NCBI GenBank assembly: GCA_017938205.1
Contig: JAGBCA010000058.1
Span: 53,564 to 117,563 of the forward strand
Source: Clostridia bacterium
GTDB lineage: Bacteria; Bacillota; Clostridia; Oscillospirales; CAG-272
Direction of reading: 5' to 3'
Length of the DNA: 64,000 bases
The notes beneath the pieces are model-generated. The model was not told the DNA's origin, did not search any database, and saw only the letters and a list, made by a program, of their open reading frames with translations. Made by a program: the position numbers and the translations under genes. Shown here one piece after another: positions 4,937 through 60,037 of this stretch. Positions within the stretch are counted from its first letter, which is position 1. Every line of letters begins with the position of its first letter.

Positions 4937-7312
4937 ATGTTTCTTTCTATGAACTGGATCGGAGATTTCGTTGATTTCTCCGGACTTGATAAAAAAGCGC
5001 TGATCAAAAACTTCACCCTTTCCACCGCCGAGGTGGAAGACATCATCGTTAAGGGTGAGGATACCTACGGCGTGATCGTTGCTAAGATCGAGAGCATCGA
5101 AAACCATCCGAACTCCAAGAAGCTCCATCTTCTCAAGGTGAACACGGGCAAGGACGTGATCGACGTGGTTTGCGGCGCGCCCAACGTGCGCGTTGGCATG
5201 AAGGTTGCGCTTGCCACCGTCGGCGGCTCCGTTTGCGGCCATCCGATCTCGGAGGCAACCATCGCGGGCTACCCCTCCTTCGGTATGTGCTGCTCGGAGG
5301 CAGAGCTTGGTATCAGCGATGATAACAGCGGCATCTGGGATATTACCGACGATATCGCGCTCGGCACGGATATCAAGTCCGTTTACCCCATCGATGATAT
5401 TATTTTCGAGGTAGACAATAAGTCCCTCACCAACCGCCCTGACCTCTGGAGCCACTACGGCATGGCAAGAGAATTTGCCACGCTGACCGGCAGAGAGCTG
5501 AAGAAGCCCGTGCTGCAGAGCACCGAGGGCTACAAGGATCTTCCTCCCGTGGACGTGAAGGTGAAGGACGGCGATCTTTGCCTGCGCTACACCGCCATTA
5601 AGGTAGAAAACGTGCAGAGAAAGATCAGCCCCGTGGATATGCGCATCCGCCTCTTCTACTGCGGCAGCCGCGCGATCAACTTCCTTGCCGATCTTACCAA
5701 CTACGTGATGCTTGAGCTTGGCCAGCCGATGCACGCCTTCGACTGCGCAAAGGTGAATAAGATCGAGGTTCAGACCTTCCCCGCGCCCTTTACCTTCCGT
5801 ACGCTGGACGGCACGGATCGCAATATGGACGACAAGATGCTCATGATCACGAGCGGGGACGAGCCTGTTGCCGTTGCCGGCATCATGGGCGGTGACGCCT
5901 CCAAGATCGAGGACGATACCAGCTCTCTGCTTCTGGAGAGCGCAACCTTCGACGGCGTAAGCATCCGTAAGACCAGCACGCGTCTTGGCCTGCGTACCGA
6001 TGCCTCGATGCGCTATGAGAAGATGCTTGATCCCGAGCTTTGCCCCCTGGCAACCGAGAGGCTTCTTGCGCTTCTTCTTTCCCTTGACGAGGGTGCGAGA
6101 GTGATCTCCTCCTTCACGGACTGCTACATGAAGCACTACCCCGAGATCACGCTTTCCTTCGACAAGAAGTATGTGGACAGATATACCGGCATTGATATTT
6201 CGATCGATGAGATCAAGACGACTCTGACCGCGCTTGGCTTCGGACTCACCGAGAAGGACGGCAATTTCACCGTTACCGTTCCCTCCTGGCGTGCCACCAA
6301 GGACGTAACGCTCAAGGCAGACATCATCGAGGAGATCACCCGTATTTACGGCTACGACAACTTTGAGGTGAAGCCCTCCACGAGCCCCCTGGCGCCGAAG
6401 CTTCCCGAAAAAGCAAAGAGCGAGGAGAACCGCATCAAGGATCTGCTCGTTAAGGGCTACCGTATGCACGAGGTCCACTCCTACATCTGGTCCGATCTTG
6501 CAAAGAATAAGGCCCTTGGCATTGAAACGCCCGTAAACGTTCGCATCATCAATGCGCAGACCCCCGACCATCAGTATCTGCGCGTTTCCATGATCCCCAC
6601 ACTTCTTTCCTTTGCGAAGGAAAACCGCGGCTACGGTGACAGCTTCTCCATCTTCGAGATCGGTCACACCGCCGAGGGACTTCGCGCAGACGGCTTGGTA
6701 AACGAGCAGAAGAAGCTCGGCGTTGTTCTCTTCAGCAAAAAGGACGGCGAGGAAGCCATCTTCCTGCGCGCACGCGATGCGATCGTAGAGCTTTGCGAGG
6801 ACATCCTGCATAAGAGCCCCGTATTCACCGCTAAGGAGCCTGTATACGGCTTCGAGCATCCGAGCAACTGCTTTGCCATCACCGTGGCAGGCGCAGAGAT
6901 CGGTTATCTCTCGGTTCCCTATCCCACCGTGAAGGAGGCCATCGACAAGAAGGCGGCCGTTGCTTTCTTCGAGATCAACACAAACCTCTTCTCTGCCGTA
7001 GCGGCAGACATTACGAAGTACGCCGAGCCCTCCCGCTTCCCCGCGATCGAAATGGATATGACCTTCGTTTGCGAGATCGGATGCGTGAACTTCGATACCC
7101 TGAAGACGGTCGCTAAGACTGCAGGCGGCGAGCTGCTCGCCTCCGTGAAGGTGCAGGACGTTTACGAGGGTGAGGAAGGAAAGAGCGCAACGCTGACTCT
7201 TCGCTTTGCCTTCTCCTCTCCCGAAAGAACGCTCACCAAGCAGGAGCTTGCTCCCGCAATGGAGGCGATCACGAAGGCATTTGAGCCCTTCGGTCTCAGC
7301 GCACAGATGTGA
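4937..7312 (+). CDS. pheT: phenylalanine--tRNA ligase beta subunit
   Basis: 791 aa from ATG 4937, preceded by GGAGG (4924-4928). The N-terminus MFLSMNWIGDF is typical of PheT. The ORF-track start at 4871 overlaps pheS and lacks an RBS. Confidence 0.95.
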   Translation: MFLSMNWIGDFVDFSGLDKKALIKNFTLSTAEVEDIIVKGEDTYGVIVAKIESIENHPNSKKLHLLKVNTGKDVIDVVCGAPNVRVGMKVALATVGGSVCGHPISEATIAGYPSFGMCCSEAELGISDDNSGIWDITDDIALGTDIKSVYPIDDIIFEVDNKSLTNRPDLWSHYGMAREFATLTGRELKKPVLQSTEGYKDLPPVDVKVKDGDLCLRYTAIKVENVQRKISPVDMRIRLFYCGSRAINFLADLTNYVMLELGQPMHAFDCAKVNKIEVQTFPAPFTFRTLDGTDRNMDDKMLMITSGDEPVAVAGIMGGDASKIEDDTSSLLLESATFDGVSIRKTSTRLGLRTDASMRYEKMLDPELCPLATERLLALLLSLDEGARVISSFTDCYMKHYPEITLSFDKKYVDRYTGIDISIDEIKTTLTALGFGLTEKDGNFTVTVPSWRATKDVTLKADIIEEITRIYGYDNFEVKPSTSPLAPKLPEKAKSEENRIKDLLVKGYRMHEVHSYIWSDLAKNKALGIETPVNVRIINAQTPDHQYLRVSMIPTLLSFAKENRGYGDSFSIFEIGHTAEGLRADGLVNEQKKLGVVLFSKKDGEEAIFLRARDAIVELCEDILHKSPVFTAKEPVYGFEHPSNCFAITVAGAEIGYLSVPYPTVKEAIDKKAAVAFFEINTNLFSAVAADITKYAEPSRFPAIEMDMTFVCEIGCVNFDTLKTVAKTAGGELLASVKVQDVYEGEEGKSATLTLRFAFSSPERTLTKQELAPAMEAITKAFEPFGLSAQM

Positions 7313-8935: not shown

Positions 8936-10297
8936 TTATGCGTTCGACATCGGATCCAGCACCTTTTTTTGAATGCGAATGCGGCCAAAGAATGCCACGA
9001 TCATAACCAAAAATTCCGCAATCGGAATTGCCCACCAAACCGCGTGCAGGCCGATCGCAAAGCCAAAAAGGATGGCAAGCGGAACGAGGAAGCCGAGCTG
9101 ACGTGCAATGCTCATCACCATGGAAAGCACACTTCTGCCCATCGCCTGGAAGAAGGAGCTGTTGACAAGGCTGTACGCCGTGAAAATATAGCCGACGGCA
9201 ATGATGCGTAGCGCAGGCACTCCAAGATCGAGCATGGCCTTCGTGGGGCTGAAAAAGCCGATCAGAAGCTCGGGAAGAACGAGCATCAAAACACTGCAAA
9301 GGCAAAGATAGCCGAAGGAATAAAAGAGCGTATAGCGATAGGCAGAGAGCATGCGGCTCTTCTTTTCCGCGCCGAGATTGTAGCTCACGATAGGCATCAT
9401 GCCGTGCGTCATACCAACGACGGGGAGAATGACGAAGCTCTGGAGCTTGAAATATACGCCGAACACGGCAGTGGCAACTCCCGTTTTTTCAAGAGCATTC
9501 AGCAAAAGATTCATCGAATAGGTCATGACCGAGCCGATCGCCATCATAATTACAGCGGGAAATCCGATCACAAGGATGCGCTTGATCTTCTCCCACTCAG
9601 GACGAAAGCCGCGGAAGCTCACGGTGATCTCGCGATTCTTATAATGATTCAGAATGATGCCAAGCACCATGCCGCCGATCTGACCGATCACAGTAGCAAC
9701 TGCCGCACCTGCAACGCCCATATCAAATACAAAAATAAAAATGGGGTCAAGGATGATGTTCAATAAAGCACCGACGCCCTGCGTATACATCGAGAGCGAG
9801 GTTTTTCCCGTGCTCTGCATCAGCTTTTCATAAATGACCTGGCCGAATGCGCCGAAGGAGAAGATACAGCAGATGCGAAGGTACTTCGTTCCCTCCGTGA
9901 TGATGGCCTCCACCTCGGTTTGCGAGCGGAAGAACGCCTCCACGCCGAAGAAGCCGACGAGCAGCATCAGGATATAGCTGCAAGCGGACAAGAACACGCC
10001 GATCGCGGCATACCGATTGGCTTGCTCACGCTTCCCCTCACCGAGGCTGCGCGAGATCAATGCATTCACACCGACGCCAAGACCGGAGGCAATGGCAATA
10101 ATAATATTCTGGATGGGAAAGGCGAGGGAAACGGCGTTCAATTCATTTTGGCCGAGCATCGCAACGAAGATCGAGTCTACCACGTTATAAAGCGCCTGCA
10201 CGAGCATCGAAGCCACCATCGGCAGCGCCATCCCGAGAAGCAGGCGGTTCATGGGCAAAACGCCCATTTTGTTCTCTTTTAAAACTTTTTCCGACAT
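8936..10297 (-). CDS. MATE family efflux transporter
   Basis: 453 aa from ATG 10297. Polytopic membrane protein with a MATE-type N-terminus (LLLGMALPMVASMLVQALYNVVDSIFV). Confidence 0.85.
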   Translation of the reverse strand: MSEKVLKENKMGVLPMNRLLLGMALPMVASMLVQALYNVVDSIFVAMLGQNELNAVSLAFPIQNIIIAIASGLGVGVNALISRSLGEGKREQANRYAAIGVFLSACSYILMLLVGFFGVEAFFRSQTEVEAIITEGTKYLRICCIFSFGAFGQVIYEKLMQSTGKTSLSMYTQGVGALLNIILDPIFIFVFDMGVAGAAVATVIGQIGGMVLGIILNHYKNREITVSFRGFRPEWEKIKRILVIGFPAVIMMAIGSVMTYSMNLLLNALEKTGVATAVFGVYFKLQSFVILPVVGMTHGMMPIVSYNLGAEKKSRMLSAYRYTLFYSFGYLCLCSVLMLVLPELLIGFFSPTKAMLDLGVPALRIIAVGYIFTAYSLVNSSFFQAMGRSVLSMVMSIARQLGFLVPLAILFGFAIGLHAVWWAIPIAEFLVMIVAFFGRIRIQKKVLDPMSNA

Positions 10298-20061: not shown

Positions 20062-20618
20062 TAGGATATGCATTTTGCGGCTCTTTTTGCACGTTGCAAA
20101 AATCCATGGAGCAGCTCGCCGCCCTCGTGGCGCAGGGCATGGACGTGCAAGCGATCATGAGTGAGCACGTATACACAATGGACACGCGCTTCGGAAAAGC
20201 AGCAGACTTTCGCGCCGAGGCCGAGCGCATCACGGGCCGCCCCGTTCTCGCCTCGATCGTAGAGGCCGAGCCTCTCGGCCCGAAAACGCCCTTGGAGGCA
20301 TTGATCATCGCCCCCTGCACGGGCAACACGCTTGCGAAGATCGCAAGCGGCATCACGGACACCGCCGTGACCATGGCGGCCAAGGCGCACCTGCGGTGCG
20401 ACCGCCCCACCGTGATCGCCCTCGCCTCCAACGACTCTCTCTCCCAGAACCTGCGAAACATCGCTACTCTGCTTCTGCGTAAGCGGGTCTACCTCGTGCC
20501 CCTGAAGCAGGACGATCCGAGGAGCAAGCCCCATTCCCTCGTCGCGGACTTCTCCCGCATCCCCGAGGCCCTCACCGCCGCCTTGGAGGAGCGCCAGCTG
20601 CGCCCGCTTTTTGAATAA
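20058..20618 (+). CDS. dpaB: dipicolinate synthase subunit B (flavoprotein)
   Basis: 186 aa. MIGYAFCGSFCT start and APCTGNTLAKIA motif, typical of SpoVFB. Confidence 0.85.
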   Translation: MIGYAFCGSFCTLQKSMEQLAALVAQGMDVQAIMSEHVYTMDTRFGKAADFRAEAERITGRPVLASIVEAEPLGPKTPLEALIIAPCTGNTLAKIASGITDTAVTMAAKAHLRCDRPTVIALASNDSLSQNLRNIATLLLRKRVYLVPLKQDDPRSKPHSLVADFSRIPEALTAALEERQLRPLFE

Positions 20619-20623
20619 GACGA

Positions 20624-20668
20624 AAAAAGGCTGAATGCCCGCAAAATGCGTGGCATTCAGCTTTTTTC
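20624..20668 (+). terminator. rho-independent terminator after dpaB
   Basis: gctgaatgcc (20630-20639) pairs with ggcattcagc (20652-20661), followed by T6. Confidence 0.85.
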
Positions 20669-20677
20669 GGATTCAGC

Positions 20678-21036
20678 ACCGTCTGCGGGGCGACGAATTT
20701 TTGAGCGTATTTGTTTGAGCGCGAGCGAAAGCGTACGAGGGTACGTTGAGCGAACGATCGGACAAGATTACGGGAATTTCTATGCCCCACATCTTTTAGT
20801 ACCGTCTTCGGGGCGACGAATTTTTGAGCGTATTTGTTTGAGCGTGAGAGAAGCCGTACAAGCGTACGGAGAGGGCGCAAACGGACAAGATTGCGAAAAT
20901 TTCTATGCCCCACATCTTTTAGTACCGTCTTCGGGGCGACGAAATTTCCGATAAGGTTGTTCGCTCGCGCGCGAAGCAATACGAGGGTATTGCGAGCAAA
21001 CGAACGGACAAGATTACGGAAATTTCTATGCCCCCC
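20678..21036. repeat. three tandem copies of a ~123-bp structured mosaic repeat
   Basis: Copy A is 20678-20800 and copy B is 20801-20923, each 123 bp. Copy C (20924 to about 21036) is truncated. The arms are conserved and the central hairpin is variable with paired substitutions. Confidence 0.9.
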
Positions 21037-21870
21037 TCATCCCTTGACTGCGCCGGAGACGATCCCCTCTATTACATAGCGCTGTGCAAAAAGATAGAAA
21101 AGAAGGATCGGCAGGATGGCAAGGATCAGCATGGCCATTAGGCCTCCAAGATCTACGGCACCGAAGGCACCTTGCATCGCAAGCTCAATGGCTACGGGGA
21201 TGGTTTTCAGGCGATTGCCGAGAACGAGGTACGGAAGAAGATAGTCGTTCCAGACCCACATACCGTTGAGGATCGCAACGGTGATCGCCGTTGGCGAAAG
21301 GAGAGGGAAAACCACGCGGAAAAAGGTTTGTATCACACCGGCGCCGTCGATCTGCGCGGCCTCTTCAAGCTCGATCGGCAGCGTTTTGATGAAGGCGGTG
21401 TAGAGAAAGATCGAAAGTCCTGCTCCGAAGCCGAGATAAACGGGGATCATGCCGAGCACGCTCGAGAGGCGCACGCGGTCGATGATATAGGTGGCGGTAT
21501 ACATGATCATAGGAAAGGGCACGACCATGCTGAAAACAAACGCACCGTACAAAATACGGCTGAAGCGCCCCTCTACCCGCACGAGAAACCAGGCACACAT
21601 GGCGGCGCAAAGGACAATGACCAGAACGGAAAGCACCGTGATCACCGCAGAACGGCCGACAGCGGCAAAAAAGCCAACCGAGGAAAGCCCGCGCCGAAAG
21701 TTTTCAAATCCGACGAAGTATTCGCCGAGCGGCAGAGCGAACGGATCTGCAGATATATAAAATTTTGATTTAAATGCGTTGATCAAAACCAAGAACACGG
21801 GAAAGAGAAAAAGCAGAGAAAGGAGGATCAAAACCGCATATATGACTACATTTATTTGCTTTTTCGTCAT
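21037..21870 (-). CDS. carbohydrate ABC transporter permease
   Basis: 277 aa with 6 TM helices. EAA-like loop (ELEEAAQIDGAGVIQTFFRVVFP). Confidence 0.9.
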   Translation of the reverse strand: MTKKQINVVIYAVLILLSLLFLFPVFLVLINAFKSKFYISADPFALPLGEYFVGFENFRRGLSSVGFFAAVGRSAVITVLSVLVIVLCAAMCAWFLVRVEGRFSRILYGAFVFSMVVPFPMIMYTATYIIDRVRLSSVLGMIPVYLGFGAGLSIFLYTAFIKTLPIELEEAAQIDGAGVIQTFFRVVFPLLSPTAITVAILNGMWVWNDYLLPYLVLGNRLKTIPVAIELAMQGAFGAVDLGGLMAMLILAILPILLFYLFAQRYVIEGIVSGAVKG

Positions 21871-31442: not shown

Positions 31443-31517
31443 CGGTGTATTTCGGTATAACCGTGAATGGAATATTTTAAAGGAGGAATCTATCGGTTCC
31501 TCCTTTTTGCTTTGCGC
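31443..31517 (+). repeat. 75-bp direct repeat, copy 1 (contains the pgsA terminator hairpin)
   Basis: Near-identical to 31718-31793. The hairpin ggaggaatc / ggttcctcc is followed by T5 (31482-31508). Confidence 0.85.
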
Positions 31518-31717
31518 TTTTATGTTTTTAAGGTTGGAAAACTCCGTTTTCCTCCATTCTTTTTAGATTCCATTCACTTTTTCCGTTTTCCCCCTCTCGG
31601 TGTATCTATATACACCTTCGGGTGGAAGAACGAAAAATTCTATCCAAAATCCCCTCGTTTTTGTTGCACTGCCTCGCTTTGGCCTCGACAACAGACCTTG
31701 CCGAATTTTTCCAACCG

Positions 31718-31793
31718 CGGTGTATTTCGGTATAACCGTGAATGGAATATTTAAAGGAGGAATCCATCGATTCCTCCTTTTTGGCTTTTACGC
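31718..31793 (+). repeat. 75-bp direct repeat, copy 2 (second terminator hairpin)
   Basis: Same sequence as copy 1 apart from a few mismatches and one indel. The hairpin ggaggaatc / gattcctcc is followed by T5. Confidence 0.85.
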
Positions 31794-51934: not shown

Positions 51935-53878
51935 TTATTTTTCTTCTGCTATAGCGAGCTCGTTTTCCGCTTTTTCGAGATCGCGGCGCACCGCGCGCAA
52001 ATGCTCGGCGTGCATCACACGCTCACGCTGAATATCCCAAAGCATCGACCACTTGGCACACGCGTTCCGATCCTCGGGATAGAAGAAGCAAAGCTCCTTG
52101 CCCTCATAGAACTGGAAGTGCTTGCCCTCGGTATAGATCAAGGCCTGCAGCTCGGCAGGCGTTTTCTCATACCGCACCTGCTTTCCGTCCTCGGTGCCCT
52201 CGTAAACGATGCCGCCTTCCGTGAAGCGGCAGATGCCCTCTCCGCGCTCGGTCATAACGCCAATGCGCTTATCAAAGCGGTGAATGGTCACCTTTTCCTC
52301 AAAGGTGTAGTCCTTCAGGGTTTTCAGATACTCGATCTGCTCCGCGTGAAGATCGGAGATGGTTTTTCCGTCCGAAAGGTAGTTTTTATCAAACACCTGC
52401 GTGTGTCCGCAGGTCTTGCAGATGAGGCTGTTTTTCTCAGTCTCTCCTGCAAACTCCGCGCCACACTTCGGGCAGCGGAACAAAAGGCGCTCGAGCCCCT
52501 TCACGTTGGCACGCCGATTGGGCTTTTTGAGAGAAATGTAGCGGCGGCACTCGTCGTAGGAGAGTGCGGCGGTGATCTTAGCCTCCAGAACCTCGTCGCT
52601 GATCGAGGCAAGCTCCTCGGCGCTGACCACCTTATGCAGGTGAATATCCACGGGGGTCTTTCTGAGGCCTATACCCCACTTGGGCTTGCAGAAATATCCA
52701 CCCACGGTATGATACTCATATACGTCCATTCCCATGTGCCGAACGAGCGCGATCGTATCTCCAACCAAGGGGAAATTCGTTCCCGCGGCGGAAAGCCGCC
52801 CCTCGGGGAACAAGACCACGGAGCAGCCCTCGCGCTTCGCCGCCATCAGCTTTTTCGCGGTTTCAAGATCGGGGGAGAAAAGGCGCTTGGGAATGCATCC
52901 GAGATGCCGCATCAGAAAGCGTACGATGCGCGCCTCAAAATAGAAACGGTTGACAACAAAGGTCAGGCGGCGGGGATACATTGCCTTTGCGGCAAAATAA
53001 AAATCAAAGAAACAGGTATGACTGCCAAGGATCAGCACGGGGCGATCCTTTTCGGGGTGCTCGCAGTTCTTACGGTTGATGCGTGCAAAAAACGAGGCCG
53101 CAAGCGTAACGAAGGGAACGACAAAATGATAAAGAAAGGGGTTCGGGCGCTCCATGGCGTGCTCATCGTAAAACTCGTGCTTGATCCAGCCGCCAAGCGC
53201 CAGCATAATGATCGACAAAAGAAGCGCAAGCGCGGCGGAAAGCCAGATCATGGTCTGCCCTTCCCAAACGCCGAGCGTGGTATATATGAAAACCCCCAGA
53301 AGATCCGAAAACAGAATGGATGGAAGCATACCGACGGTGCAGGTGAGAAGGTACCGTCTATAAGAGATCTGCTTATTCGCACCGTAATACGCAACCGCAC
53401 CAAAGGGCACGAGCGGCATTACGAACCAAAGGCACATGGCCGCCATAGTTGCATTCTTATGGTTCATGCGCCCCTCTGCCTTCTGCACGCGCTCGGTTTT
53501 GCGCTCCAGCATCGTGAAAGGCAATTTAAGACGACGCACGAAAAGGAAGATCAGCGATGCGCCGATGAGCGCACCGAGGAGCATCAGCGGAATCGCAATA
53601 TAGAAGGGGTACGCAATTCCCACCGCCACCTGCAAAAGCTCCGGCGGAACGAAAACGACCAGCGTTTGCAGAAGCTGCAAGGAAAAGACGATCACCGCAC
53701 CGCGCAGACCGCGATCGCGAAGGTACGCCTTTGCATCCTCAAAACGCCCCTCCTCGCCCATGCGGAGAATATCCAGGACCTCTCCCGAAACCGAAACGTA
53801 TATCCATATCAGAACCGCCACGACGAGCAATAGAAGAAAAAGCTCCAGGGCCCGGAATATCTTCTTTTTCGTATTCAT
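51935..53878 (-). CDS. fusion protein: VTT (TVP38/TMEM64, DedA-superfamily) domain + 1-acyl-glycerol-3-phosphate acyltransferase-like domain + zinc ribbon
   Basis: 647 aa from ATG 53878 (GGAGG RBS). Polytopic N-terminal half. HTCFFD (Hx4D) and FPEG LPLAT motifs. CPKCGAEF...CKTCGH zinc ribbon. Confidence 0.7.
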   Translation of the reverse strand: MNTKKKIFRALELFLLLLVVAVLIWIYVSVSGEVLDILRMGEEGRFEDAKAYLRDRGLRGAVIVFSLQLLQTLVVFVPPELLQVAVGIAYPFYIAIPLMLLGALIGASLIFLFVRRLKLPFTMLERKTERVQKAEGRMNHKNATMAAMCLWFVMPLVPFGAVAYYGANKQISYRRYLLTCTVGMLPSILFSDLLGVFIYTTLGVWEGQTMIWLSAALALLLSIIMLALGGWIKHEFYDEHAMERPNPFLYHFVVPFVTLAASFFARINRKNCEHPEKDRPVLILGSHTCFFDFYFAAKAMYPRRLTFVVNRFYFEARIVRFLMRHLGCIPKRLFSPDLETAKKLMAAKREGCSVVLFPEGRLSAAGTNFPLVGDTIALVRHMGMDVYEYHTVGGYFCKPKWGIGLRKTPVDIHLHKVVSAEELASISDEVLEAKITAALSYDECRRYISLKKPNRRANVKGLERLLFRCPKCGAEFAGETEKNSLICKTCGHTQVFDKNYLSDGKTISDLHAEQIEYLKTLKDYTFEEKVTIHRFDKRIGVMTERGEGICRFTEGGIVYEGTEDGKQVRYEKTPAELQALIYTEGKHFQFYEGKELCFFYPEDRNACAKWSMLWDIQRERVMHAEHLRAVRRDLEKAENELAIAEEK

Positions 53879-54149: not shown

Positions 54150-54956
54150 TCAGCGGTGCTCAAGTCTTCGCGCAACGATCAGAGATACGCCGAAAAGCAA
54201 AGCACCCGCCGCGCTGATCCCCAGCACCCAAGCCCACGGCACGGAGGCAAGCCCCGAAAGCGCGATCGCACCCGTGACCTGCAAGGCAGAAAAGATCACG
54301 ATCACGTCATACACGGCGGCCGCAAGCAAAAACACGCCGCCAACGAGCACCGCGGCAAACGCCCCCGCGGAGGAGGCTTTTGCTTTCGCAATACGTCGCG
54401 GCGTAGCCGCGCTGAAATCCATGGCCTCGGAAAGATAGAACAGCACGAGAAGCAAGATCAGCGTTTCGGGTATCATATAGGTCGCGTTATACGAAAGCGA
54501 GCCGATCAGCACCGCCTCCGTGGGGATCGAAAGCCCCGCCCAAACGGTAGCCCCCGAGAGCACGTGGCAAAGATAGCGCAAAACCGAAGCAAGCGCCGCA
54601 CCCGAAATGAGCGCGAGGCTCTGGCGCATACCGCTTTTTCTGAAGCAGCCGCCGAGCCCAAGCACCGCAAAGGCGATCACGTAGTCCAAAAGGATCACCG
54701 CGAGCACCGAGGCAAAGCCCGTCACGAACGAAAGATTTTTCAATCCCAGAAGCTGCTGGATCACGCCGTATACCGTGCCGGCCGCAAGGCCGTATTTCAC
54801 GCCGTGGCGGTACGAGATCAGAACGATCGGCAGCATCGAGGCAAAGGTCACAGATCCCCCCGCAGGCAGCTCCGCCAGCTTTAAAAGACTCAAGACCGTA
54901 GCAAGCGCGATCATCACCGCGCTCTCCACGAGAGCCAAAACCTTTTTGTTTTCCAT
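54150..54956 (-). CDS. thiT: energy-coupled thiamine transporter S component (ThiT-like) with C-terminal hydrophobic extension
   Basis: 268 aa. ThiT-like N-terminal ~180 aa. Sits directly behind a TPP riboswitch. Confidence 0.75.
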   Translation of the reverse strand: MENKKVLALVESAVMIALATVLSLLKLAELPAGGSVTFASMLPIVLISYRHGVKYGLAAGTVYGVIQQLLGLKNLSFVTGFASVLAVILLDYVIAFAVLGLGGCFRKSGMRQSLALISGAALASVLRYLCHVLSGATVWAGLSIPTEAVLIGSLSYNATYMIPETLILLLVLFYLSEAMDFSAATPRRIAKAKASSAGAFAAVLVGGVFLLAAAVYDVIVIFSALQVTGAIALSGLASVPWAWVLGISAAGALLFGVSLIVARRLEHR

Positions 54957-54971
54957 CCTCGGAAAACCTCC

Positions 54972-55118
54972 TATAAAAAATTCGCCGCACAGAAAATATC
55001 CGTGTGGCGATTTCTTATAGCATCTTCCTACGACGGCATTATCCGTATCAGGTTATAAGGGTTTGGACCGTTCCATCTCAGCCTTTCGGCACCCCTGATA
55101 TTATTCTGTTTTCAGCGT
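54972..55118 (-). promoter_or_regulatory. TPP (THI-box) riboswitch with terminator expression platform
   Basis: The minus strand reads ...caggggtgccgaaaggctgagatggaac...acctgatacggataatgccgtcg.... A hairpin follows (54982-55010), then a T6 run. Confidence 0.9.
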
Positions 55119-57881: not shown

Positions 57882-58574
57882 TCACATTTTTTCTAAAACG
57901 CCGAGAAGCTCTGAAAGCTCTCGGATCTCTGCGGTGGGCACAAGCTCTGCGCTTGCCTGCTTTCCGTGCGGATTGAACCAAACGCTCCTGATCCCCGAAA
58001 CGATACCACCCTTGATATCCGAGGTCAAGCTGTCGCCAACGATCACGGCCTCCTCGCGCTTAAAATCGGGGATCCTTGCAAAGCAGGCCTCAAAATATGC
58101 AAGCGAGGGCTTGTTGTGCCCTACCTCCTCGGAAACGAAGCGCTCCTTGAAGTATTTTCCGATCCCTGCGGAGGCAACGCGCCCTGCCTGCACGGCAGCA
58201 ATGCCGTTGGTGGCAAGATAGAGCGTATATTTCGGATAGAGTGCCTCAAGCAGCGCCTCTGCGCCGGGAAGAAAATAATGCCCCTCGGCAAGATGCCCCT
58301 CATATACCGCAGGTGCGCGCGTAGCATCCGCCCGACCGGAAATGCCGAGCGCGTCAAAAAACTTTTTAAACCGCATAGCGCGAAGCTCCGTGCGCGTGAT
58401 CTCCGCACGCTCCAATGCTTCCCAGCAGCTTTTGTTGATCTTACTGTAAAGCGCTTTGTTTTCCTCCGTTACCGGAATGGAAAACTCACGCAGCGTTTTC
58501 TCGATTGCCACGTCCTCCGCCTTATGAAAATCCAGGATCGTGTCATCCAGATCCAAAAATACGTGTTTGATCAT
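57882..58574 (-). CDS. HAD-IA family hydrolase (YjjG-like nucleotidase)
   Basis: 230 aa from ATG 58574. Motif I FLDLDDT and motif IV VGDS. The ORF-track N-terminal extension is a translation of the repeat element. Confidence 0.8.
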   Translation of the reverse strand: MIKHVFLDLDDTILDFHKAEDVAIEKTLREFSIPVTEENKALYSKINKSCWEALERAEITRTELRAMRFKKFFDALGISGRADATRAPAVYEGHLAEGHYFLPGAEALLEALYPKYTLYLATNGIAAVQAGRVASAGIGKYFKERFVSEEVGHNKPSLAYFEACFARIPDFKREEAVIVGDSLTSDIKGGIVSGIRSVWFNPHGKQASAELVPTAEIRELSELLGVLEKM

Positions 58575-58656
58575 AGAGTTACCTTTCTTTACAAGAAGCG
58601 GAGGCCGACGCAGATGCTTCTGCAGCAGCCTCCCAGTTTTATATAACTTCACAAGT

Positions 58657-58768
58657 ACCGTCTGCGCGCGCAGAAAATTTCGGATGATAAGGTTTGATTT
58701 TCGCAGAAGGCGTACGAGGGTACGTCGATGCAAAAATCGGGCCTTTGCGCCGAAATTTTCCAGCCGCA
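58657..58768. repeat. dispersed fourth copy of the structured mosaic repeat
   Basis: Same layout as copy C at 20924-21036. Outer stem gaaaatttcgg (58673-58683) pairs with ccgaaattttc (58750-58760). Apical ggcgtac-GAGG-gtacgtc hairpin. Confidence 0.8.
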
Positions 58769-59923
58769 CTATACGTCAGCTTCTCGGTTTTCGAGGGCAG
58801 CCAACGCCACGCGGAAGGCCTTCGCCGCCGTCATACGTGCTTCCTCATCCTCGGATTTGAGGAGCGGAAGGAGCTTGCGGTATACCTCGCCTGCGGCGTT
58901 CATATCTCTTGCAAAATGCTCTGCTCCGTAGAGAGGCATGGTTTTATCCACCAGATCGAAATAATAAAGACCGAAGGCATCACATTCAAGATTTTTCGGA
59001 ACGAGGAAGCGCGGCGCGATCTCACCAACGAGCTGAACGCGCAACGCGGTCTCCATACCGTATTTTTTATCGCTGATCACCTTGGTGATGCGGTTGATGA
59101 TCTCGTTGCCGGTGTCCACGCCTGTAATATCGATCGTTTCGGTAACAAAGCGAAGGCGGCCGAAGGAAAGCTTCTTAACGTCAATGGAAAGCTCACCGTC
59201 GTTATAATCCACCACGATCAGGTTTGCGCCGCCGATGCCCGTATTTTCAAAGCCCGTGCATTCCAGCGAGCCGCAGTAGCTATAGATCACGGAGTCGCCG
59301 ATCTTCATAAAGTCGCTCGCCTCGTGGCGCGAGCCGAGCGCATAGTAATCCGCACCGAACTTCTTCAGCTCATTTTCGGAGAGGGGGCATTGATCGGATT
59401 CAATGCTGCCGCCGAGATCGCCGTAGCCGCAAACGAGGTTAATACGGGAGGAATCGTCCACCTCTTTCTCGTAGAGCGGGCTTTCCGTCATCGTTTCGTT
59501 CATGAAGGCCCAGCCGTACACGGTAACGTTAAACTGCTCAAAATCGAAGCGGGAAAGCGTGTCCTTTGAGAAAACGTACACGTTGGAGGGCAAGCGGCCG
59601 GAGGTGTAGATCGGGTTGTTTTCATAGTAATCGGAGCGACCGGGGGAAATGATAAACACGGTCTCCGAGCAATTGCGGAACTCACGGATCAGAACCTCGG
59701 CGGTGGTATTGGTGGCATAGCGGTTATCAAAAAGATCGCCGCTGATCAGCACCACGTTTACGCCGCGATCGCGAACGTATTGCATCATGCGCATAAAGGA
59801 GGAGCGCAGCTCTCTGCGTCTCTCATCACATTTTTCAGCCGTCAAGCCCACCGTGGGCGTATCCAGATGAATATCCGAGCAATGCAGAAATCTCAAGTGC
59901 GTATTTTTGCTGTTTTCGCTCAT
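58769..59923 (-). CDS. SbcD/YhaO-like metallophosphoesterase (DNA repair exonuclease family)
   Basis: 384 aa from ATG 59923. Calcineurin-like phosphoesterase motifs HCSDIHLD and SGDLFDN. Confidence 0.8.
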   Translation of the reverse strand: MSENSKNTHLRFLHCSDIHLDTPTVGLTAEKCDERRRELRSSFMRMMQYVRDRGVNVVLISGDLFDNRYATNTTAEVLIREFRNCSETVFIISPGRSDYYENNPIYTSGRLPSNVYVFSKDTLSRFDFEQFNVTVYGWAFMNETMTESPLYEKEVDDSSRINLVCGYGDLGGSIESDQCPLSENELKKFGADYYALGSRHEASDFMKIGDSVIYSYCGSLECTGFENTGIGGANLIVVDYNDGELSIDVKKLSFGRLRFVTETIDITGVDTGNEIINRITKVISDKKYGMETALRVQLVGEIAPRFLVPKNLECDAFGLYYFDLVDKTMPLYGAEHFARDMNAAGEVYRKLLPLLKSEDEEARMTAAKAFRVALAALENREADV

Positions 59924-60037
59924 TCGTTCTCCCATCCTTTTCTTCCGTGCAAGCCGGAATTTTCTATCTTTCCATTATAGTATAGCATTTCTCTTTTCCT
60001 TTTGCAATAATTTTAGCAAAAAAACTTGCAAAATGTC

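Follow-up and report, generated by a model that had tools for sequence, protein, structure and literature searches.

A lineage-restricted family of tandem, strand-specific hairpin repeats at gene junctions in uncultured Clostridia

Organization of the repeat array downstream of dpaB

The stretch of DNA analyzed in this study, referred to as the window, comprises 64,000 nucleotides (positions 53,564 to 117,563 of contig JAGBCA010000058.1, assembly GCA_017938205.1) from a Clostridia bacterium of the lineage CAG-272. It contains an intergenic array of three contiguous 123-nt units at positions 20675-21036, which is bounded by the terminator of the dpaB gene and by the stop codon of a convergent ATP-binding cassette (ABC) permease gene. 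This arrangement (dpaB terminator, array, permease stop codon) is designated L1; L2 denotes a second position consisting of a Metallophos stop codon, a unit and a HAD gene, and L3 a probable diverged member. The units of the window are named A to D (wA-wD in comparisons), three-digit L names such as L016, L023 or L046 refer to related or strain contigs, and u stands for the unit number.

A first-pass annotation, prepared from the sequence alone, had described three head-to-tail copies following the dpaB terminator, the last of them cut at the permease stop codon. The same layout was obtained with Tandem Repeats Finder (TRF), which reported a single array at 20678-21034 with a score of 418 (2.9 copies of a 123-nt period, matching at 80% and free of indels), and from a gapless alignment of units A to C with a mean column identity of 87%. 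Moreover, the 20- and 30-nt conserved arm motifs occur three times each in the window, compared to 0.00-0.01 expected occurrences based on shuffles. A covariance model (R1), which was built from 21 units and run on the window with filters off, placed units A, B and C at 20675-20795, 20798-20918 and 20921-21041. Accordingly, the 123-nt period proposed earlier was retained and the start was moved, since the natural unit begins 3 nt further upstream with AGY-ACCGTCT. The gene identities assigned previously, dpaB and a sugar ABC operon, agree with the domain content: dpaB corresponds to PF02441, its close relatives being named 'dipicolinate synthase subunit B' in the source records, and the operon downstream of the array encodes two BPD_transp_1 permeases and one SBP_bac_1 binding protein.

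The 5' boundary of the array is formed by the intrinsic terminator of dpaB (20623..20667, + strand). As read from the sequence, it is composed of an A run, a 10-bp G/C-rich stem (20630-20639 paired with 20652-20661) and a T run (20662-20667), and with this composition it looks bidirectional. It escaped a simple terminator scan, which accepts loops of 3-8 nt, whereas its own loop measures 12 nt. In relatives, an unrelated terminator sequence is located at this position. The array starts approximately 8 nt past the T run and ends one base ahead of the stop codon of the permease gene (BPD_transp_1; 21037..21870, - strand), which was assigned from the list of open reading frames (ORFs) and from Pfam via the orthologous locus L016. 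No minus-strand terminator-like site was found by the scan in 20400-21300 and hence none separates this stop codon from the array, so that the permease transcript should continue into the complement of the units.

Unit A (20675..20797, + strand; TRF and R1, 119.5 bits) consists of the leader AGCACCGTCT, an interrupted hairpin of about 100 nt with the apex cgtac-GAGG-gtacg, and the tail GCCCCAC-ATCTTTT. Its predicted RNA fold amounts to -39.9 kcal/mol on the + strand vs. -30.3 kcal/mol on the - strand for 123 nt, and to -34.6 vs. -20.7 kcal/mol for the trimmed 102-nt core. Unit B (20798..20920, + strand; TRF and R1, 113.1 bits) features the same arms around another core with the apex ccgtac-AAGC-gtacgg (-36.6 kcal/mol on the + strand vs. 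-25.3 kcal/mol on the - strand) and shares 92% identity with the first unit of strain contig L017. Unit C (20921..21036, + strand; R1, 128.6 bits) represents the best-paired copy, with 29 Watson-Crick pairs and one G.U pair among the 30 pairs counted and a predicted fold of -50.6 kcal/mol (z = -5.4). Its 3' motif GCCCCCC stops one base short of the permease stop codon (21037-21039). The terminal units of strains L016 (u3) and L017 (u2) match unit C at 99-100% identity. The apical hairpins quoted in the first-pass annotation for these units, including gcaatac-GAGG-gtattgc of unit C, were found in the sequence, as was the perfect 10-bp outer stem of unit C (20941-20950 with 21017-21026). A variable core distinguishing units A and B was also observed, but the estimate that roughly half of its positions differ was too high: 13 of the 17 differences fall into unit positions 45-85, which corresponds to about a third of the core.

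In the leaders of units A and B (20680-20692 and 20803-20815, + strand), a possible 5-bp mini-hairpin, CGTCT-KCG-GGGCG, is followed by ACGAATTTTT and would form at the expense of the outer helix in the long hairpin. Leader mini-hairpins of these two units (CGTCTKCGGGGCG) were the sole 'terminators' called by a consensus scan, and these calls are regarded as pattern noise.

Conserved fold, covariation and strand preference

Units are 121-124 nt long, and sister species additionally possess a 110-nt variant without the leader. Each unit is predicted to fold as an interrupted hairpin of about 100 nt comprising 33 bp in six helices, on the + strand of the window at both L1 and L2. From 5' to 3', a unit opens with a single-stranded, conserved leader, AGUACCGUCU. 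An outer helix of G/C pairs and an AAAUUU helix follow, then middle helices that vary, the conserved apex and, at the 3' end, GCCSCAC. The apex in turn consists of GAAG, a 7-bp stem ending in UAC, a tetraloop, GUA... and subsequently CGAG. Conservation is not restricted to paired positions, as it includes the unpaired ACCGTCT leader and a GAA/GA internal loop beside the apical 7-bp stem (TAC ... GTA); the 3' end GCCSCAC is conserved as well.

Based on an alignment of 21 units, RNAalifold predicted 30 pairs, 20 of which show compensatory changes on both sides. The 33-pair structure including the outer G/C helix was tested on 28 distinct units originating from L1 and L2 of several species. In this set, 91.8% of the cells are paired, vs. 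38-47% when the partners are slid by 1-3 columns, and changes on both sides with pairing kept were observed for 25 of the 33 pairs, vs. 6-12 after sliding. None of 500 shuffles reached any of five pairing measures, which provides strong support for the covariation that the first-pass annotation had suggested to check. Furthermore, L1-type and L2-type units are only about 55% identical to each other, yet they share the same length, helix plan and motifs. The earlier description of the array as structured and non-coding, with changes following base pairing rather than codons, is therefore in line with the present results. Its notion of paired substitutions among units A, B and C holds with respect to pairing, but much of the variation reflects old, separately evolved unit lineages lying side by side.

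An A.C cell on the + strand corresponds to a G.U pair on the opposite strand, and the ratio of the two therefore reports the folding strand. Within the consensus pairs, 55 G.U cells and 24 A.C cells were counted, a count biased by the prediction of the structure on the + strand. Free folding of both strands, representing an unbiased test, yielded a more stable structure on the + strand for 31 of 32 distinct units, with a mean difference of 7.7 kcal/mol. The L3 hairpin described below shows an asymmetry of the same sign on its own matching strand. Moreover, R1 assigned only 8-29 bits to the reverse strand of true units, the complement of which still folds at about -20 to -46 kcal/mol. The + strand of the window has a GC skew of zero to negative (neutral to C-rich), and compositional skew is therefore not the source of the strand asymmetry; on the same basis, a mutational strand bias was rejected as an explanation of the G.U excess. 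If C-to-T bias coupled to transcription acted on the coding strand of the genes adjoining the units, an asymmetry of opposite sign would result.

Coding potential and database comparisons

As stated in the first-pass annotation, both strands are open through the array, with ORFs of 102 amino acids (+ strand) and 135 amino acids (- strand), and the period of 123 nt equals 41 codons, as would be expected for a protein-coding repeat of 41 residues on either strand. Arrays of sister species, which are built from 110- and 124-nt units, contain 2-8 stop codons in every frame, and the variable sites are distributed over the codon phases without periodicity (16/20/20). Among 5.8 billion proteins, no homologue of the + strand array ORF was found, the minus-strand ORF not being included in this search, and none of the gene calls listed for related contigs is located within the array. 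A conserved coding repeat, which the first-pass annotation had named as a possible alternative, can on these grounds practically be dismissed.

Comparison with Rfam 15, as proposed earlier, gave no match on any unit in scans of the array, of L2, of the whole window and of three related loci, with E values up to 10 considered at L1 and L2 and up to 1 at the three related loci. Weak matches were confined to the adjacent dpaB terminator, the top one being RhlA_thermometer (22.3 bits vs. a threshold of 85), which reaches the first 46 nt of unit A. BLAST searches against plasmid and phage records revealed no similar DNA. A match to the terminus of an insertion sequence (IS) or MITE did not turn up in the databases searched, among which there was no dedicated IS database. 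No transposase, integrase or reverse transcriptase is encoded in the window, which harbors housekeeping genes only. In the literature, no description of a Clostridial element of the same kind was found.

Several known motifs were considered by inspection and rejected. A K-turn would require a 3-nt bulge adjoining tandem G.A pairs, which the GAA/GA internal loop does not have, and the loops of the units are variable (GAGG, AAGC, AAGG, AAGA, GAAG, GTGG, ACGA, ATAG) and without GGA, in contrast to CsrA-binding hairpins. Domain V of group II introns was discarded as well, there being no Rfam Intron_gpII match at E values up to 10, and type I toxin peptides were dismissed on account of array ORFs that are not hydrophobic and possess no start or stop per unit.

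Further family members in the window

The first-pass annotation had described the three copies of the array only. A repeat search and screening with R1 additionally revealed unit D (58654..58774, + strand; 104.6 bits), a solitary, diverged paralogue in register with units A to C, whose predicted fold amounts to -55.5 kcal/mol on the + strand vs. -46.7 kcal/mol on the - strand (z = -5.8). This unit is located in the 194-nt spacer between a Metallophos gene (58769-59935, - strand) and a HAD hydrolase gene (57882-58574, - strand), antisense to both, and its 3' motif GCCGCAC shares 1 nt with the Metallophos stop codon. An exact look-up of the Metallophos protein returned no record. Between unit D and the HAD start codon, a hairpin GGAGGC...GCCTCC (58600..58633, strand unassigned) was read from the sequence; it was not called by the terminator scan and has a counterpart in relatives at filled as well as empty alleles. 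It probably represents a terminator or processing hairpin bounding L2.

A third, more diverged member is probably represented by the L3 hairpin (31566..31651, - strand) in the interval between a pgsA-like gene (+ strand) and an XRE-like gene (- strand). Only the core is present, with the apex GAAG-gtgtat-ATAG-atacac-CGAG and without the ACCGTCT leader. The hairpin obtained 29.4 bits with R1 (E ~1.5e-4, filters off) and E = 0.001 with nhmmer, and it folds at -32.0 kcal/mol on the matching strand vs. -22.6 kcal/mol on the other. The match also occurs in strain contig L032. Copies are thus present elsewhere in the window as well as in related species, contrary to the absence from genome or clade that the first-pass annotation had named as a refutation.

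The 208-nt segment holding the L3 hairpin is flanked by two 67-nt direct repeats (31443-31509 and 31718-31783; 94-97% identical), each with a terminator-like hairpin AAAGGAGGAATC..GATTCCTCCTTTTTG. The arrangement resembles a block, either inserted or duplicated, enclosed by two copies of a terminator; in strain contig L032, the spacer has the same length as in the window. Apart from the repeat family, a thiamine pyrophosphate (TPP) riboswitch (RF00059, 77.4 bits) was detected at 55008-55106 (- strand), upstream of a Thia_YuaJ thiamine transporter gene (54150-54956, - strand). A thiamine pyrophosphokinase gene is located nearby, and the arrangement is ordinary.

Distribution, inheritance and copy number variation

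In a genome collection with one genome per species (185,579 species), a strict motif pattern identified true copies in only three Clostridia/Eubacteriales metagenome-assembled genomes (MAGs), always at the two syntenic positions L1 and L2. One further match to the strict pattern, located in a coding region of Balneolaceae, is attributed to chance, and the 11 matches obtained with a looser pattern in metagenome and viral scans were without exception AT-rich chance matches without the hairpin. The hosts are uncultured and known only as MAGs, at least one of which originates from an animal gut (water deer rectum). No further occupied positions were observed in approximately 315 kb of related contigs representing about ten genomes.

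Copy numbers, which were read from assemblies at an array where short-read contigs often break, vary overall from 0 to 7 between strains and species. At L1, contigs encoding an identical DpaB carry three, two or one units (L016, L017 and L019, respectively), with flanks 98.3-99.7% identical to the window. A sister species with an 88% identical DpaB possesses about 3.5 to 7 units of mixed 110/124-nt types. In L023 (DpaB 89% identical, gene order kept), no intact unit is present at L1, and a stretch of about 30 nt resembles fused outer arms. At L2, one unit was found in all five strain contigs of the window's own species. Among relatives, L003 and L046 feature two units, L041 and L042 one unit accompanied by an orphan 3' end of a second, and L043/L044 none. 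Furthermore, L2 is empty in L045 and L047 and filled in L046, with an identical HAD protein encoded in all three.

Where whole units are missing, orphan unit 3' ends (...aatgcaagccgcac, ...atttcgaagccgcac) or fused outer arms were observed, namely at ~9915-9932 in L042, ~9795-9812 in L041, ~6622-6640 in L045 and 5641-5672 in L023. These remnants look like footprints of deletion and not like never-occupied sites. Moreover, seven independent metagenome contigs (L004, L018, L020-L022, L027 and L028) end inside or at the edge of the L1 array, which indicates that the repeat regularly breaks short-read assemblies.

Units cluster by locus and not by genome. The hairpin core of wD is 84-88% identical to that of same-locus D-type units in other species (81-88% for full units) and only about 55% identical to wA-wC. 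Between species, D-type units share 81-88% identity, and the adjacent HAD and Metallophos genes share 73-76% and 83-84%, respectively, at the nucleotide level. For L1, identity between species amounts to 70-80% in the units and to about 79% in the flanking DNA; no alignment was obtained between the dpaB terminators of these species. Grouping by locus and conservation equal to that of the flanking genes indicate that the loci are old and vertically inherited and that the units are under constraint. Judged from these comparisons, the family is small, old and lineage-restricted and consists of paralogous loci passed on vertically.

The first L1 unit can differ by 16-20% between strains whose flanks are 98.5% identical, the differences affecting both arms at once. 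Two unit types are combined reciprocally in the chimeric units L001u4 and L001u5, which pair less well (20/30 Watson-Crick). Based on chimeric units and orphan arm ends, we infer that unequal homologous recombination in unit register, acting among old unit types, expands, contracts and rearranges the array. A large part of the apparent covariation therefore stems from the block-wise shuffling of old unit types, and not from compensatory mutation in place.

Other repeats were noticed at the same intergenic spots of relatives. Beside the L2 units of two related species, in L046 (~5640-5790, - strand) and L041 (~9850-9960, - strand), very short hairpin arrays with a period of 24-27 nt are located, in which the 5-7-bp stems vary and the linkers are conserved; examples are 'cacgcttcgcgtg atgccatgcga', present five to six times, and 'ccgcgcggcgcgcgg tataacat', present four times. 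These arrays are a second, different kind of structured tandem repeat. L029 and L030 encode identical DpaB proteins, 73% identical to that of the window, in a different gene order. A 150-nt indel just after dpaB (L029 10660-10700 vs. L030 10660-10850) is due to unrelated, degenerate 'gtgcttTCGGaagg'-like short repeats and was excluded from the unit family; it suggests that the DNA following dpaB is repeat-prone in the wider clade.

Genomic position and possible routes of transcription

At L1 and L2, the 3' motif of the unit abuts the stop codon of the opposite-strand gene, or overlaps it by 1 nt, in all species examined, and the units extend from that stop codon to a terminator-like hairpin. 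Considered on the folding strand, units are located just past a hairpin and a T-rich stretch, a feature that is clear at L1 and, for L2, in L043 and L046, but less pronounced elsewhere. Folding-strand RNA could arise at L1 from transcription that passes the dpaB terminator; nothing obvious could provide it at L2.

Functional interpretation and alternative explanations

The pairing statistics, the strand comparison and the strain-to-strain differences establish the units as a predicted non-coding, strand-specific, covarying hairpin with minisatellite-like copy number variation. Concerning its role, we assign a probability of roughly one half to the reading that the unit acts as a single-stranded hairpin, most probably as RNA derived from the folding strand, and that it acts locally at gene junctions. 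In such a hairpin module, RNA would be made from the folding strand, single-stranded DNA being the alternative, and selection would retain pairing, G.U pairs, unpaired motifs and length over the time in which the flanking genes diverged. The hairpin would be expected to be bound by a protein or cut by a double-strand-specific RNase. As it adjoins terminators and lies antisense to the 3' end of the abutting gene, it would act on that junction, its dose being set by copy number.

Several observations weigh against this proposal. Selection is visible on one strand and obvious transcription would be expected on the other, which represents the main unexplained mismatch: the permease operon and Metallophos-HAD transcripts, which should traverse the units, contain the complement with the weaker fold, a scan limited to sigma-70-like promoters detected none for the folding strand at L1 or L2, and at L2 no plausible + strand read-through gene was found for more than 25 kb upstream (considering ORFs of at least 180 amino acids). 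The units also lack terminators of their own, and they are dispensable: in L023, L043/L044 and L045/L047, the element is gone or only vestiges of its arms are left. Moreover, units are related by duplication and recombination, and covariation and strand counts therefore overstate the number of independent events. Template-switch repair can likewise keep palindromes complementary without selection on RNA, and G.T pairs in single-stranded DNA give the same asymmetry, so that RNA and single-stranded DNA are indistinguishable here.

As an unlikely alternative, the units could be relics of a non-autonomous mobile element of the REP/ERIC/MITE type, whose single-stranded DNA hairpin would be recognized by a transposase encoded elsewhere, e.g., of the Y1/HUH type. 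Such an element might home just past terminator hairpins, and its own hairpin and T run (ATCTTTT) would recreate the target and thereby lead to head-to-tail arrays. The location of every locus just past a hairpin and T-rich stretch on the folding strand fits this scenario, as do the strand-specific fold, the narrow taxonomic range, the ERIC-like size of a unit forming one imperfect palindrome, the functionally unlinked neighboring genes of the different loci, and the presence/absence polymorphism within species (L045/L047 vs. L046) and between species (L023, L043). However, neither the 64-kb window with its lack of transposase, integrase and reverse transcriptase genes nor the comparison of filled and empty alleles (L046 vs. 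L045, window vs. L043), which revealed no clear target-site duplication, points to mobility. The empty allele L045 retains a footprint of the unit 3' end, indicating deletion of a unit and not a never-occupied site; grouping by locus and the identity of about 55% between L1 and L2 units argue against recent transposition or inter-locus exchange; and no lineage-specific insertion was seen in approximately 315 kb of orthologous DNA from about ten genomes. In addition, the units are as conserved as the neighboring coding DNA, and L3 is placed in the opposite orientation, so that orientation is not fixed relative to replication. Function on the complementary strand, as a 3' untranslated region (UTR) or intergenic mRNA element serving as a cis exonuclease barrier or as a termination or processing aid in the manner proposed for E. 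coli REP, would account for the unit 3' motif at the opposite-strand stop codon at both loci in every species examined. It would also agree with the expected transcription of that strand, given that no terminator-like site is present from the stop codon to the units, and with the residual folding of the complement (about -20 to -46 kcal/mol). A 2026 preprint presents REPs as local, dual 3'-UTR regulators (doi 10.64898/2026.03.23.713779). Nevertheless, the asymmetry has the wrong sign for such a role, since the mRNA strand shows A.C mismatches where the other strand has G.U pairs (31 of 32 units). Transcription-coupled C-to-T bias would produce the opposite pattern. The complement reaches only 8-29 bits with R1, and the L3 hairpin lies past the terminator of pgsA and not ahead of it. 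This explanation is considered quite improbable.

The remaining alternative, a selectively neutral minisatellite derived from a quasi-palindrome, would require complementarity to be restored by intrastrand template switching or gene conversion and the repeat to have no function. Highly variable copy numbers, chimeric units and the loss of the element in some strains are compatible with it, and other short hairpin repeats gather at the same intergenic spots in relatives; furthermore, the arms change together as blocks between strains, indicating unit replacement and not stepwise compensatory mutation. We nevertheless regard it as very improbable, because template switching yields perfect arms and would not retain G.U pairs on one strand, and because it accounts neither for the conserved unpaired motifs (ACCGTCT leader, GAA/GA internal loop) nor for the same length and helix plan in paralogues of only 55% identity. 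Neutral intergenic DNA is also not expected at 81-88% identity beside genes at 73-84%.

The preferred reading, a local single-stranded hairpin that is most probably RNA, can be extended to a more speculative and rather doubtful form. In this form, the units would constitute a new multicopy regulatory RNA hairpin class of spore-forming gut Clostridia, transcribed antisense to the 3' end of the abutting gene, in which the leader and the GAAG/CGAG-flanked apex are recognized by a dedicated protein or RNase and the dose (0-7) is tuned as in a variable-number tandem repeat (VNTR); a new terminator-homing single-stranded DNA element, which would build tandem arrays by recreating its own target, is considered equally plausible. 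If the hairpin is a functional RNA, it would represent an undescribed structured RNA family from uncultured Clostridia whose dose is set by a minisatellite-like polymorphism. Whatever the function, the array provides a ready strain-typing marker, with one, two or three units in strains that are otherwise 98-99% identical, and it is a recurrent cause of assembly breaks. It also calls for caution, as block shuffling of old unit types can mimic covariation. The structural and evolutionary evidence is unusually clean, but long tandem hairpins are common, the family is confined to few taxa, and no lead to a function was obtained.

Comparison with known repeat systems

The first-pass annotation had compared the array with BOX/BIME/REP-type mosaic elements. 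This kinship is reduced to a loose analogy by a unit length of about 120 nt, the head-to-tail order, the missing GTAG, the lack of a transposase gene in the window and the restriction to two or three fixed, vertically inherited loci. Membership in REP/BIME, BOX, MITE, attC/integron and type III antitoxin arrays was rejected on the defining features of these systems. REP/BIME/REPIN elements with their RAYT transposases resemble the units in being palindromic extragenic repeats near terminators and convergent genes, with strand-specific hairpins and a proposed 3'-UTR action (PMC3333891, PMC3116915). REPs differ, partly according to general knowledge, in their length of 20-40 nt, their 5' GTAG, their hundreds of copies and their inverted pairs in BIMEs/REPINs, whereas the units described here are about 120 nt long (a 100-nt hairpin in a 121-124-nt repeat), start with the leader AGTACCGTCT and lack GTAG. 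In contrast to the alternating orientation of BIMEs, every array consists of units repeated directly, head-to-tail, on a single strand. With regard to RAYT-type dispersal, which implies tens to hundreds of copies per genome, 2-3 loci were found in the 64-kb window and none more in the approximately 315 kb of related contigs, and no Y1_Tnp gene is present in the window.

ERIC/IRU elements, generally known as imperfect palindromes of about 127 bp, match the units in size (~120-127 nt) and in the folding of the whole unit into one long imperfect hairpin, as well as in their intergenic location near gene ends, orientation-dependent folding and lack of an encoded protein. ERICs are commonly described as occurring at tens to hundreds of scattered sites, in both orientations and not head-to-tail, whereas the present family is low-copy, occupies fixed syntenic loci in direct tandem and occurs in Clostridia, a distinction drawn by description and not by alignment with the ERIC consensus. 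Regarding MITEs (ERIC, Correia, RUP), terminal inverted repeats are present in the form of the complementary and covarying outer arms GGGGC..GAAATTT and AAATTTC..GCCCC, which constitute the base of the full-length hairpin. However, no clean target-site duplication was found for L046 vs. L045 or the window vs. L043, and recent dispersal was not seen, wD being closer to D-type units of other species (84-88%) than to wA-wC (~55%).

Integron attC sites, with the 123-126-nt repeats of Vibrio cholerae as the general example, also conserve structure over variable sequence, form strand-specific single-strand hairpins of similar length and share one orientation. By inspection, the unit ends ACCGTCTKCGGGGC and GCCSCAC lack the R''/R' cores (RYYYAAC ... 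GTTRRRY), and no AAC/GTT is located at the hairpin base; unlike attC or CALIN arrays, the units are contiguous with a spacing of 0 and without gene cassettes, and no IntI integrase is encoded in the window. The tandem LhrC1-4 small RNAs (sRNAs) and type III antitoxin arrays are generally known to consist of head-to-tail structured RNA units with copy-dependent dose and paralogues at unrelated loci. Each LhrC sRNA, however, has its own promoter and terminator as commonly described, neither of which was seen at the units. ToxI/CptI antitoxin repeats reportedly comprise units of a few tens of nucleotides directly upstream of a same-strand toxin gene; here, units measure 110-124 nt, the gene following the array (permease) is convergent, and both L2 neighbors are antisense to the unit.

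Pneumococcal BOX elements, according to general knowledge, share the mosaic modular construction with one module varying in number, the stable predicted structure and the location in intergenic DNA of Firmicutes. They are organized as boxA-(boxB)n-boxC with more than 100 dispersed copies, and only the 45-nt boxB is repeated, whereas in the low-copy family described here the whole hairpin unit is repeated. MIRU-type VNTRs of mycobacteria likewise consist of intergenic units, tens to about 100 nt in length, that are repeated in tandem with strain-variable copy number at fixed loci, and both kinds of array can therefore be used for typing. MIRUs are not known to form long hairpins with covariation, and short ORFs are overlapped or coupled by some of them, whereas the units here constitute a conserved 33-bp hairpin. 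By analogy with these systems, the behavior of the units combines an ERIC-sized full-length hairpin, MIRU-like copy number variation and the terminator-proximal location of REP/BIME. As judged from sequence and predicted structure, the units represent a new sequence family within a known general kind, that of bacterial structured intergenic repeats or hairpin RNA motifs.

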